Notes: generated from the sequence alone by a model not told the origin. Counted from the first letter of the stretch, positions 422 through 12,693 are shown. The stretch: 64,000 nucleotides of DNA from Oscillospiraceae bacterium (GCA_015064855.1 SVRK01000006.1:6698-70697), one strand, 5' to 3'. Made by a program: numbers and translations.

Positions 422-684
422 GCCTCCCTTTACAAGGGAGGCATGCGGGACGTCGAGGGCGCCGTCCCCTACGGCGTATTGTTAATTTTATTGGTTATTT
501 GTAGGGGAGTGGTTTCCGCTCCCGTTCTGTTTTTTGTTTTCTTTTGTTTTCGGGAAGAGCAAGCCCTTCCCCTACGATGTGCCGTTAATTTCATTTATCG
601 TTTGTAGGGGAGGTTATTCCCCTACGAGGGGAAATGTCGCGTTGCGACAAAAGGGTTGCGCCCTGCTAAGGGTATATCCTCCCG
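422..684. repeat. Cluster of GTAG-type REP sequences (446-472 rc, 501-524, 551-575 rc, 604-684 interrupted) plus double-hairpin element pieces (422-442, ~618-670)
   Basis: GTAGGGG-stem-loop-CCCG units in alternating orientation; 551-575 is near identical to the REP inside the RAYT gene. Confidence 0.8.
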
Positions 685-5544: not shown

Positions 5545-5885
5545 GACACAAAGGCATAAACACAGCCGAAAAATAATTAAGGTGTATCGTTTTGGGTACA
5601 CCTTTTGCTTTTTATAATGTTGAAAAGCCAAGGCTTTTCTTCCAATAATCGGCTGTTATCGTCGATTTTCGCTCTACCGTACAAAGTACGCCTACGCTTG
5701 AAAATCGACGATTTCTGCTCTTTGTCTCTTCGTCCTGTCGAAGTTGGGCGGTCGCACTCGCCCATTTCCACTCGCCACCTCTTCGCCCGGTTGAAGCATA
5801 CGCCTTCGGAAAAACTCACCAATTTTTCCGCCCTGTCTCTTCGCCAAAATGAAATTGCTTTTGTAGGGGCGACCATTGGTCGTCC
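5545..5885 (+). repeat. Composite repeat (CTCTACCGTAC core family) followed by a GTAG REP
   Basis: Core ctctaccgtacaaagtacgcc 5672-5692 is identical to 32090-32110. REP 5861-5885 is identical to 32703-32727. Confidence 0.75.
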
Positions 5886-5953
5886 TTTTTCATATTGACA
5901 ACCACCCGTGTTTGATTTATAATTAAATCAAGTATATTTTTGCGAGGTAATTT

Positions 5954-7680: not shown

Positions 7681-7890
7681 ATGAAAAAGAACAAAATTTT
7701 AAAAATTAAATTAAGCGAGGACGTTGCAAAGAAATTTGCAGTAGTTTCCGAGAATGAAAAAATGACTCTCCAAAACGAAATCCTTCAAATGATTCGTCAA
7801 AAAATCTCATATTACGAAAGAGTAAAGGGTAACATTAAAAGGGAAGCCCTCGACTCCGCCAATATGACGGAATATACAGACGAGGAATAA
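7681..7890 (+). CDS. Small hypothetical protein, possibly ribbon-helix-helix/Arc-like
   Basis: 69-aa ORF with a beta-strand-like LKIKLS followed by helices; TAATG overlap with the downstream RAYT. Confidence 0.55.
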   Translation: MKKNKILKIKLSEDVAKKFAVVSENEKMTLQNEILQMIRQKISYYERVKGNIKREALDSANMTEYTDEE

Positions 7891-8390
7891 TGGAAAACAC
7901 GGATTTTCCAAAAAGAAAACCAAATAGGTTAGGTGGGTTTGATTATAGCACACCAAAAGGCTATTTTATAACAATTTGCACCGAAAATAGAAGTAAGATT
8001 TTATCTACCATTGTAGGGGAGGGGCTTGCTCCTCCCGAAATACAATTAACACAGTATGGCAAAATTGTAAAAGAACAATTATTATTGCTAGAAAATAGAT
8101 ATTCTAATTTACAAATAGATTCTTATGCTATAATGCCAAATCATATACATATAATATTTGTTTTGCTTGAAAACACGGGAGGAGCAAGCCCCTCCCCTAC
8201 AATATCAGATATTGTTTGTGCATTTAAATCTCAATGCGTGCGAAATTGTAGGAGAACAGGCTTCGAGGGAAAGCTTTTCCAACGCTCCTTTCACGACCAC
8301 ATAATAAGAAACCAAAACGACTACGAGGAAATATCAAAATACATCTACGAAAACCCGATTAATTGGAAAATGGATGAATTTTACAGTTAA
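7890..8390 (+). mobile_element. REP-associated tyrosine transposase (RAYT/TnpA-REP, HUH Y1 family)
   Basis: RLxxFDYS, YFITICT, MPNHIH (HUH), QRSFHDHIIRN and YIYENP (catalytic Tyr) motifs; contains internal REP pair. Confidence 0.9.
8010..8203. repeat. Perfect 28-bp inverted repeat (REP pair) inside the RAYT ORF
   Basis: attgtaggggaggggcttgctcctcccg at 8010-8037 and its exact reverse complement at 8176-8203. Confidence 0.92.
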
Positions 8391-12574: not shown

Positions 12575-12693
12575 GTATAGGGATAACGCCCTCGACATCC
12601 CGAAGAGAGGTACGCACCGATAAAACGGGAGGATAATATCACCCCTTGCACGAACAATATTGATACATCGTAGGGGAGGCAATCTGCCTCCCG
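12575..12693. repeat. Degenerate GTAG REP cluster
   Basis: 12575-12602, 12626-12650 (rc) and gtaggggaggcaatctgcctcccg at 12670-12693. Confidence 0.65.

Follow-up and report, generated by a model that had tools for sequence, protein, structure and literature searches.

An inverted pair of REP hairpins lies in frame within a RAYT-like transposase gene of gut Clostridia

Results

A RAYT-like gene and its relatives in the source genome

The stretch of DNA analysed in this study, here called the window, comprises 64,000 nt from an Oscillospiraceae bacterium (GCA_015064855.1, SVRK01000006.1:6698-70697). Its features of interest are a gene with the motifs of RAYT (TnpA_REP) transposases, two REP-like arms within this gene and a distant cluster of dispersed REPs (Table 1). 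In an alignment of 49 sequences, H85, H87 and Y151 are invariant, and N155 is nearly so. The window protein matches Pfam PF01797 (Y1_Tnp) with 24 bits (cut-off 23) and NCBIfam NF047646 (REP_Tyr_transpos) with 65.7 bits, which is below the cut-off of 80. The sole meaningful match in a sequence search of the PDB was 4er8_A, the E. coli TnpA_REP (E = 3.6e-5). An AF2 model of the window protein was built on 49 sequences (pLDDT 89.4), and Foldseek returned 4er8_A as the best match to it (E = 2.3e-8, TM 0.55), with the ISDra2 and IS608 transposases next in rank. The C-terminus lies 15 residues past Y151, and a conserved C-terminal extension is absent. Motifs, predicted fold and the dispersed GTAG palindromes described below place the gene in the RAYT/TnpA_REP kind (class 2 of TnpA_Y1).

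Copy number is low. Two further full-length paralogues are present in the source genome, the three genes being 51-52% identical, and near-identical copies were not found. An IS200/IS605 insertion sequence was considered and rejected: the genome has no near-identical copies, and there are no subterminal hairpins outside the gene. Immediately upstream, a 69-aa ORF (window 7681-7890) overlaps the RAYT start with its stop codon (TAATG); it has no Pfam or NCBIfam match. Its candidacy as a conserved partner of the RAYT was rejected, the ORF being present only in the source genome and at the orthologous locus of one relative.

Table 1. Positions of the RAYT-like gene, its internal REP arms and the REP cluster, counted in nt from the first letter of the window.
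Feature	Position	Strand	Remarks
BIME-like cluster	446..625	.	four or five different GTAGGGG REPs in alternating orientation
Cluster member	446-472	-	neighbouring GTAG tags ~28 nt apart
Cluster member	501-524	+	neighbouring GTAG tags ~28 nt apart
Cluster member, class-A intergenic copy	551..575	-	one compensatory stem pair, G-C to A-T; neighbouring GTAG tags ~28 nt apart
Cluster member, 'double foot' palindrome	604-625		GTAG...CTAC
RAYT / TnpA_REP-like gene	7890..8390	+	single long ORF, 166 aa
Arm 1	8010..8037	+	REP, GTAG at 8013 on the coding strand; encodes (I)VGEGLAPP
Inter-arm segment	8038..8175	+	138 nt; helix 55-70, strands 74-81 and 85-92, including HuH
HuH motif N84-H-I-H87	8139-8150	+	within the MPNHIH codons
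Arm 2	8176..8203	-	same REP, GTAG on the template strand (iREP on the coding strand); encodes GGASPSPT
Catalytic Tyr Y151	8340-8342	+	in YIYENP, a Y-x3-NP motif

An inverted REP pair inside the coding sequence

A preliminary description of this DNA had reported a perfect 28-bp inverted pair, in frame and enclosing the MPNHIH codons, and every point of it was reproduced: the two arms are exact reverse complements over 28 nt with a spacer of 138 nt. Less perfect pairing (92%) extends over 36 nt (8002-8037 with 8176-8211). The in-frame translations are STIVGEGLAPPE for arm 1 and NTGGASPSPT for arm 2. Each arm consists of GTAGGGG and a hairpin, a character on which single-stranded DNA folding agreed with the preliminary description: the GTAG strand forms eight pairs, including one G-T, at -5.7 kcal/mol, and the strand opposite to GTAG forms six pairs at -5.0 kcal/mol. 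Allowing up to three mismatches, the 25-nt REP occurs three times in the window, against no occurrence in 100 shuffles. It had also been stated that GTAG REPs do not flank the gene; indeed, no GTAGGGG hairpin was found within 2 kb of it, and the nearest lie at window positions 5863-5886 and 12670-12693.

Read along the coding strand, the order is REP, linker, inverted REP, and it is identical on the other strand. The geometry is therefore that of a tail-to-tail BIME, or of a REPIN, with a long coding spacer. Both arms are predicted to encode surface loops, as the confident model places both arm peptides in loops, a point that had been left to structure prediction. Arm 1 encodes loop 43-49, at the tip of the beta-hairpin that strands 39-42 and 50-53 form between beta1 and the first helix. 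Arm 2 corresponds to loop 93-104, which links the HuH strand to helix 105-121; in the E. coli enzyme, the equivalent helix binds DNA (PMC8266576).

Dispersed REPs belong to the classes found in the gene arms

The source genome (2.02 Mb, 38 contigs, assembly 96% complete) contains 16 copies of the window REP with up to three mismatches, and control matches were absent (0). With up to two mismatches this class, here class A, has 14 copies; two are the arms and 12 lie outside the gene, 11 of these 12 also outside ORFs of at least 100 aa. The free copy in the BIME-like cluster has two differences, which are the two sides of one stem pair, exactly as had been proposed from the window alone. Two other classes are those of the paralogues: class B has 11 copies and class C 21, both counts taking in the arm pair of the respective paralogue. 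A fourth REP, class D (GTAGGGGACGGCGCC(C)TCGACGTCCCG), is likewise dispersed in the source genome (G000), for example at window 446-472; a RAYT carrying it was not found in this assembly, which is 96% complete. Class-D REPs are present in the RAYT arms of other genomes (L036, L056, L067 and L077).

When any GTAG followed by a perfect hairpin is counted, the source genome shows no excess (256 sites vs 366 in the reversed genome). GTAGGGG followed by a hairpin is found at 113 sites vs 74. Five congeners with a RAYT match have 8, 10, 71, 32 and 8 GTAGGGG...CCCG sites, and five congeners without a RAYT match (completeness 63-96%) have 8, 9, 2, 0 and 0. Among the latter, no RAYT was found in G001 (74% complete, 8 sites) or in G003 (96% complete, 9 sites vs 5 in the control). 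The proposal that the arms match the commonest REP of each genome holds in part. In G007, the commonest variant among the 71 sites is also the one found in the arms of a RAYT, whereas in G009 the arms fall in the commonest class, yet not in its commonest variant; in the source genome, dispersed REPs do match the arms. Sequence comparison thus shows that the gene arms are of the same classes as the dispersed REPs of their own genome.

Two further observations concern the surroundings of dispersed copies. At G000:C6:212764-212841 (- strand; ~465-542 of L129), a remnant resembling the class-A RAYT has a degenerate HuH strand, continues with ...ENTGGASPSPT and ends in a class-A REP, so that at least one 'dispersed' copy is the relic of a decayed RAYT. 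A tandem array (L126 389-1382; G000:C28:24288-25281) consists of 4.1 copies of a 240-nt unit, 94% alike, each of which holds one class-C REP. Arrays of a similar kind, with repeat lengths of 184 and 266 nt, are located at G000:C5:167673-168064 and C6:191621-191910. Rfam assigned no family to the REP-bearing arrays and only a tRNA nearby.

The two-arm layout in paralogues and homologues

All three paralogues carry a perfect inverted pair of 27-28 nt at these two sites, but the hairpin differs in each. Relatives were collected by a scan of one genome per species, in which 564 were recognised among 603 candidates and the best 80 were kept. Nearly all of these are gut or rumen Clostridia bins; they provide 79 genes, L062 being without an intact ORF. 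An in-gene inverted repeat with a score of at least 13 was detected in 72 of these 79 genes. Windows of equal length from the flanks of these loci reached this score in 2 of 268 cases, and codon-shuffled genes in none of 79. These controls were chosen because reversal of a sequence keeps its inverted repeats. Under a stricter hairpin test, both arms were recovered in 61 of 74 Bacillota genes. The arms hardly vary in location or distance (median offsets of -126 and +64 nt from the HuH codon), and the sites are shared across genes that are only 38-62% identical. Ten more genes of the same genus or order have this layout too. The two-arm layout is, on these counts, a trait of the family.

Complementarity of the arms in homologues, which had been put forward as a check, is thus present in 72 genes and has decayed in seven. 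The latter have lost one or both arms, and since they keep an open frame and loops of similar length, the arms were lost by mutation and are dispensable for the protein. Covariation of the arms between homologues, another check that had been suggested, is supported, as by the three hairpins of the paralogues. A protein tree was built with arm residues masked, and the REP class was mapped on it as a label. The class changes 21 times on the tree (minimum 13, shuffled mean 45.8, none of 200 shuffles as low); as kin share labels, this value indicates clustering and not a rate. The comparison shows that REP class tracks the protein tree inferred from the masked alignment.

Constraint acts on the nucleic acid

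Arm 1 is almost always read as GTA-GGx (Val-Gly) and arm 2 in most genes as CCT-ACx (Pro-Thr). In eight genes (L041, L045, L068, L075, L076, L078, L082 and L093) the reading of arm 2 is shifted to xxC-CTA-Cxx (Pro-Leu). One DNA element is thus read in two frames and yields unrelated peptides. Among the 72 genes whose arms could be compared, 18 have arms identical over 27 nt, and in most of the rest divergence is confined to positions beyond the REP. Stem differences between arms in these 72 genes comprise 18 compensatory double changes, found in 15 genes, vs 15 uncompensated single changes, several of which concern spurious pairs outside the true stem. The remaining differences are one double change with a wobble pair and three single changes that keep a wobble. 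With L051/L085 and L087/L097 being near-duplicates, about 13 compensatory events are independent. Compensatory doubles keep the local hairpin and lower the complementarity between the arms; the unit that is kept is therefore the single REP. Both the double reading of arm 2 and the compensation inside single hairpins confirm the earlier impression that the pair is kept at the level of nucleic acid. They show conservation of the arms as predicted DNA hairpins, not as peptides, and place the constraint on DNA or RNA.

Amplification of arms, rearrangements and RNA folding

In-frame tandem duplications were observed for arm 1 (L049 and L098), for arm 2 (L059) and for both arms (L093). A profile search of 1.84 billion representatives gave 4570 proteins at E <= 1e-30. 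Among the best 150 of these, ten proteins were sampled, and five (P0089, P0108, P0065, P0124 and P0126) contain long arrays of REP-type peptides precisely at the two arm sites; these proteins are 211-284 aa long and hold as many as six tandem units in frame at one or the other site. The E. coli TnpA_REP binds single-stranded REPs and cleaves C^T sites of the linker and of a 3' inverted REP, distant ones included; it also joins strands, by which units are added (Ton-Hoang, 2012; PMC3333891). By analogy, the duplications and arrays are as would be predicted by the strand-transfer amplification model for this enzyme.

Excision or inversion of the segment 8010-8203, which the preliminary description had raised, was not borne out. 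All 72 pair-bearing homologues have the same orientation and an open frame, and the contigs of four metagenome runs contain no clean joint for excision, inversion or nicking at this segment; in some runs parts of the gene were without cover, and the scope of these contigs does not extend to rare rearrangements or expression. Contig joints that link 7991/7992 to 8123, 8130 and 8289 were considered and are best read as diverged homologues which align at conserved blocks only. Summed depth was 130-1770 on the arms vs ~5-50 elsewhere, so the arms are highly repeated in gut samples. In many contigs the two arms enclose 11-37 unrelated letters, the arrangement of REPIN-type doublets with a short spacer.

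A single orthologue, L062 (1501-1807; identical to L119), from the related genome G004, has the same synteny and a 191-nt deletion corresponding to window 7992-8182. Lost with it are arm 1, 7 nt of arm 2 and the HuH segment between them, and the reading frame is shifted. Its ends show an imperfect 6-nt microhomology and do not coincide with the REP borders. Both this position and the frameshift point to decay rather than to a switch. On the RNA level, the mRNA segment with the 28-bp long-range stem folds at -83.7 kcal/mol (z = -8.75).

Relatives in other phyla

The RAYT gene of Aggregatibacter segnis served as outside comparator, and the 80 loci nearest to its protein formed a second sample, of which 73 could be analysed; four of the Bacillota loci lie on contigs already represented in the first sample. 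Among 47 genes from other phyla, 27 carry a REP in the loop that follows HuH; it is oriented as arm 2 in 22 cases, and in 12 it forms a close +/- doublet. None of the 47 was found to have an in-gene REP before HuH, whereas 65 of 74 Bacillota genes in one sample and 14 of 22 in the other do; nine of the 47 have their + strand partner upstream of the gene. A cognate-like REP within 300 nt of the gene was detected at 14 of 77 homologous loci, the other 63 being without one.

Discussion

RAYTs and their REPs have been a puzzle for a long time. That each RAYT services its own family of hairpins is assumed and, to our knowledge, has been demonstrated in vitro for a few pairs only. In this study, we observed REPs of the classes dispersed in the genome at two fixed sites inside the RAYT-like gene. 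It is probable, in our view, that the RAYT carries its cognate REPs in the coding sequence and that self-processing by the enzyme keeps the arms matched to the REP pool. By analogy with the E. coli TnpA_REP, the encoded enzyme would bind and nick the in-gene REPs on single-stranded DNA, and cleavage and rejoining, mostly at its own locus, would keep the arms in step with the genomic pool of REPs. The same activity might now and then duplicate arms in frame. Two surface loops that presumably tolerate almost any peptide would host the arms, and a 28-bp duplex between the arms in the mRNA, together with enzyme-bound hairpins, may limit expression, either as a side effect or as a selected brake. 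The preliminary description had called the gene its own substrate; this stands insofar as the gene carries cognate REPs, and self-processing is plausible by the E. coli analogy only. Several points speak against this reading: selection for a regulatory structure would keep the arms alike as well, REPs persist where a RAYT was not found (class D in G000, and the genomes G001 and G003), the arms in G009 do not equal the top variant of their class, and seven homologues with an open frame have lost one or both arms.

That the limit on expression is the whole function of the pair is possible, although we regard it as rather unlikely. The pair would then be an autoregulatory device which throttles the transposase through the mRNA duplex or through hairpins bound by the enzyme in the transcription bubble, with no processing of DNA; a 28-bp duplex around the HuH segment would be a target for double-strand-specific RNase and a block to translation. 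The minimum-energy RNA fold does contain the full long-range stem, arms are identical over 27 nt in a quarter of the comparable genes (18/72) and mostly differ only beyond the REP in the others, and their distances from the HuH codon hardly vary. However, arms that differ keep their local hairpins and give up complementarity to each other, and in relatives from other phyla the gene holds a single REP or a close doublet that is confined to the second loop and lacks a long-range partner within the coding sequence. A passive origin, in which REPs inserted into two permissive loops are merely tolerated as landing pads, with no role and no further processing, is improbable. It would agree with the view of Quentin et al. 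(2018; PMC6006769), who regard such insertions as peripheral and probably neutral, with the in-frame REPs of unrelated genes (PMC3733652) and with the decayed arms of some homologues. Neutral inserts should decay, however, and most arms are perfect hairpins, many pairs are identical, the same sites are used across genes that are 38-62% identical, and REP class follows the protein tree.

The perfect inverted repeats that bracket the catalytic motif, and the loss of this segment in L062, bring to mind an invertible or excisable cassette, in which recombination between the arms would flip or remove the HuH segment as an on/off switch. This is very improbable: the L062 deletion misses the REP borders and is frameshifted, as replication slippage would give, and every homologue with a pair shows one orientation and an open frame. 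It is hardly credible at all that the peptides were selected as protein motifs and that the complementarity of the DNA is a by-product. V42, G43, the nearly invariant P103 and T104, which is invariant in the three paralogues, recur in alignments, but these residues are what GTAGGG and CCCTAC encode. Moreover, arm 2 gives unrelated peptides in its two frames, residues between the fixed ones vary freely while the DNA stays palindromic, and the same DNA is also intergenic.

The in-gene pair could, further, be a protected, vertically inherited master copy of each REP family, from which the enzyme reseeds the dispersed REPs and which it overwrites from them; we consider this improbable. If it were true, any change of the REP would alter the enzyme simultaneously, as the same bases encode the loops beside the HuH strand and the DNA-binding helix. 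Substrate and enzyme would then be physically coupled in evolution, which could explain why REP class and RAYT lineage match.

For Clostridia genes that bear the pair, a single short gene suffices to read which enzyme goes with which substrate, fragmentary metagenome bins included. Tests of specificity and co-evolution thereby gain hundreds of naturally matched pairs of enzyme and hairpin. The gene also shows plainly how DNA hairpins can constrain a coding sequence, as seen from the two reading frames and the compensatory changes within genes. In-frame REPs in this subgroup are already in print, so that the gain is a refinement and not a discovery.

With the E. coli REPtron (RayT/YafM, PDB 4ER8), the window gene shares the predicted fold, the catalytic motifs and the GTAG-tagged hairpin. 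A REP and an inverted REP on one strand are also the configuration that is bound and cut in vitro (PMC3333891). Unlike in E. coli, where REPs flank the gene and linkers are short, the REPs lie inside the gene with a 138-nt coding linker, and the E. coli protein lacks the hairpin loop of arm 1. A REPIN as described by Bertels and Rainey (2011; PMC3116915) likewise consists of two inverted REPs, and short-spacer doublets occur in the own genome as well; in contrast, the spacer within the gene is coding and 138 nt long, and the unit is single-copy with no sign of moving. GTAG palindromes are tolerated in frame in loops of unrelated housekeeping genes (Di Nocera et al., 2013; PMC3733652). Those REP/RPE insertions are sporadic, whereas here the host gene is that of the presumed acting enzyme and the sites are conserved in the clade.

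Among the closest known systems is the subclass of TnpA_REP that Quentin et al. (2018; BMC Genomics 19:475, PMC6006769) number 2.4, which is group 4 of the RAYTs of Bertels et al. (2017; PMC5581495). In subclass 2.4, REPs are reported in frame within the tnpA_REP genes, where they leave the frame undisturbed; they predominate in this subclass and are generally located between HuH and Y, in the beta3/alphaC loop (PMC6006769). According to the same account, the subclass has NH[IFV]H, no C-terminal extension and a conserved N-terminal motif, as well as GTAGGG REPs with 8-bp stems and 'double foot' forms, all of which resemble the window gene. An in-frame REP in the beta3/alphaC loop corresponds to arm 2 (loop 93-104). 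Of the signature NH[IFV]H, WQ and YIxNNP, the window protein has NHIH, FQ and YIYENP, while most homologues have WQ and several YIxNNP. A link to the subclass is also given by the A. segnis RAYT, which is 36-41% identical to and collinear with the Clostridia proteins (profile E = 3.1e-44). Its inverted GTAGGG pair lies outside the gene, 588 nt apart, and its loops at the arm sites are short; the flanking REP is the one listed for the A. aphrophilus gene of subclass 2.4 (PMC6006769). Motifs, REP type and this indirect link fit a placement of the window gene in the subclass 2.4/group 4 kind.

Compared with the published subclass, the HuH-Y distance is shorter (66 aa vs a median of 88), flanking REPs (REPtron) are absent and the host clade is gut Clostridia instead of mainly Cyanobacteria and Bacteroidetes (PMC6006769). 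The window gene further differs from what the text on subclass 2.4 describes in having exactly two inverted REPs at fixed sites, one of them in the beta1/alphaA loop. A REP before HuH or a fixed inverted pair does not appear in that text, although its Figure S10 may show more, and internal REPs are not mentioned in the portions considered here of Nunvar (2010; PMC2817692), Bertels (2017; PMC5581495) and Ton-Hoang (2012; PMC3333891). In the literature searched, Quentin et al. (2018) and Di Nocera et al. (2013) give the only accounts of in-frame REPs. The caveat of the preliminary description that the arrangement might already be known for its subgroup is hence justified for in-frame REPs as such, and does not extend, in that text, to the arm before HuH and the fixed inverted pair. 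By sequence comparison, the fixed pair that brackets HuH, mostly without flanking REPs, is best described as a variant, specific to Clostridia and Tissierellia, of the known in-frame REPs. As far as the searched literature shows, this two-arm variant and the evidence for its maintenance at the DNA level are new.
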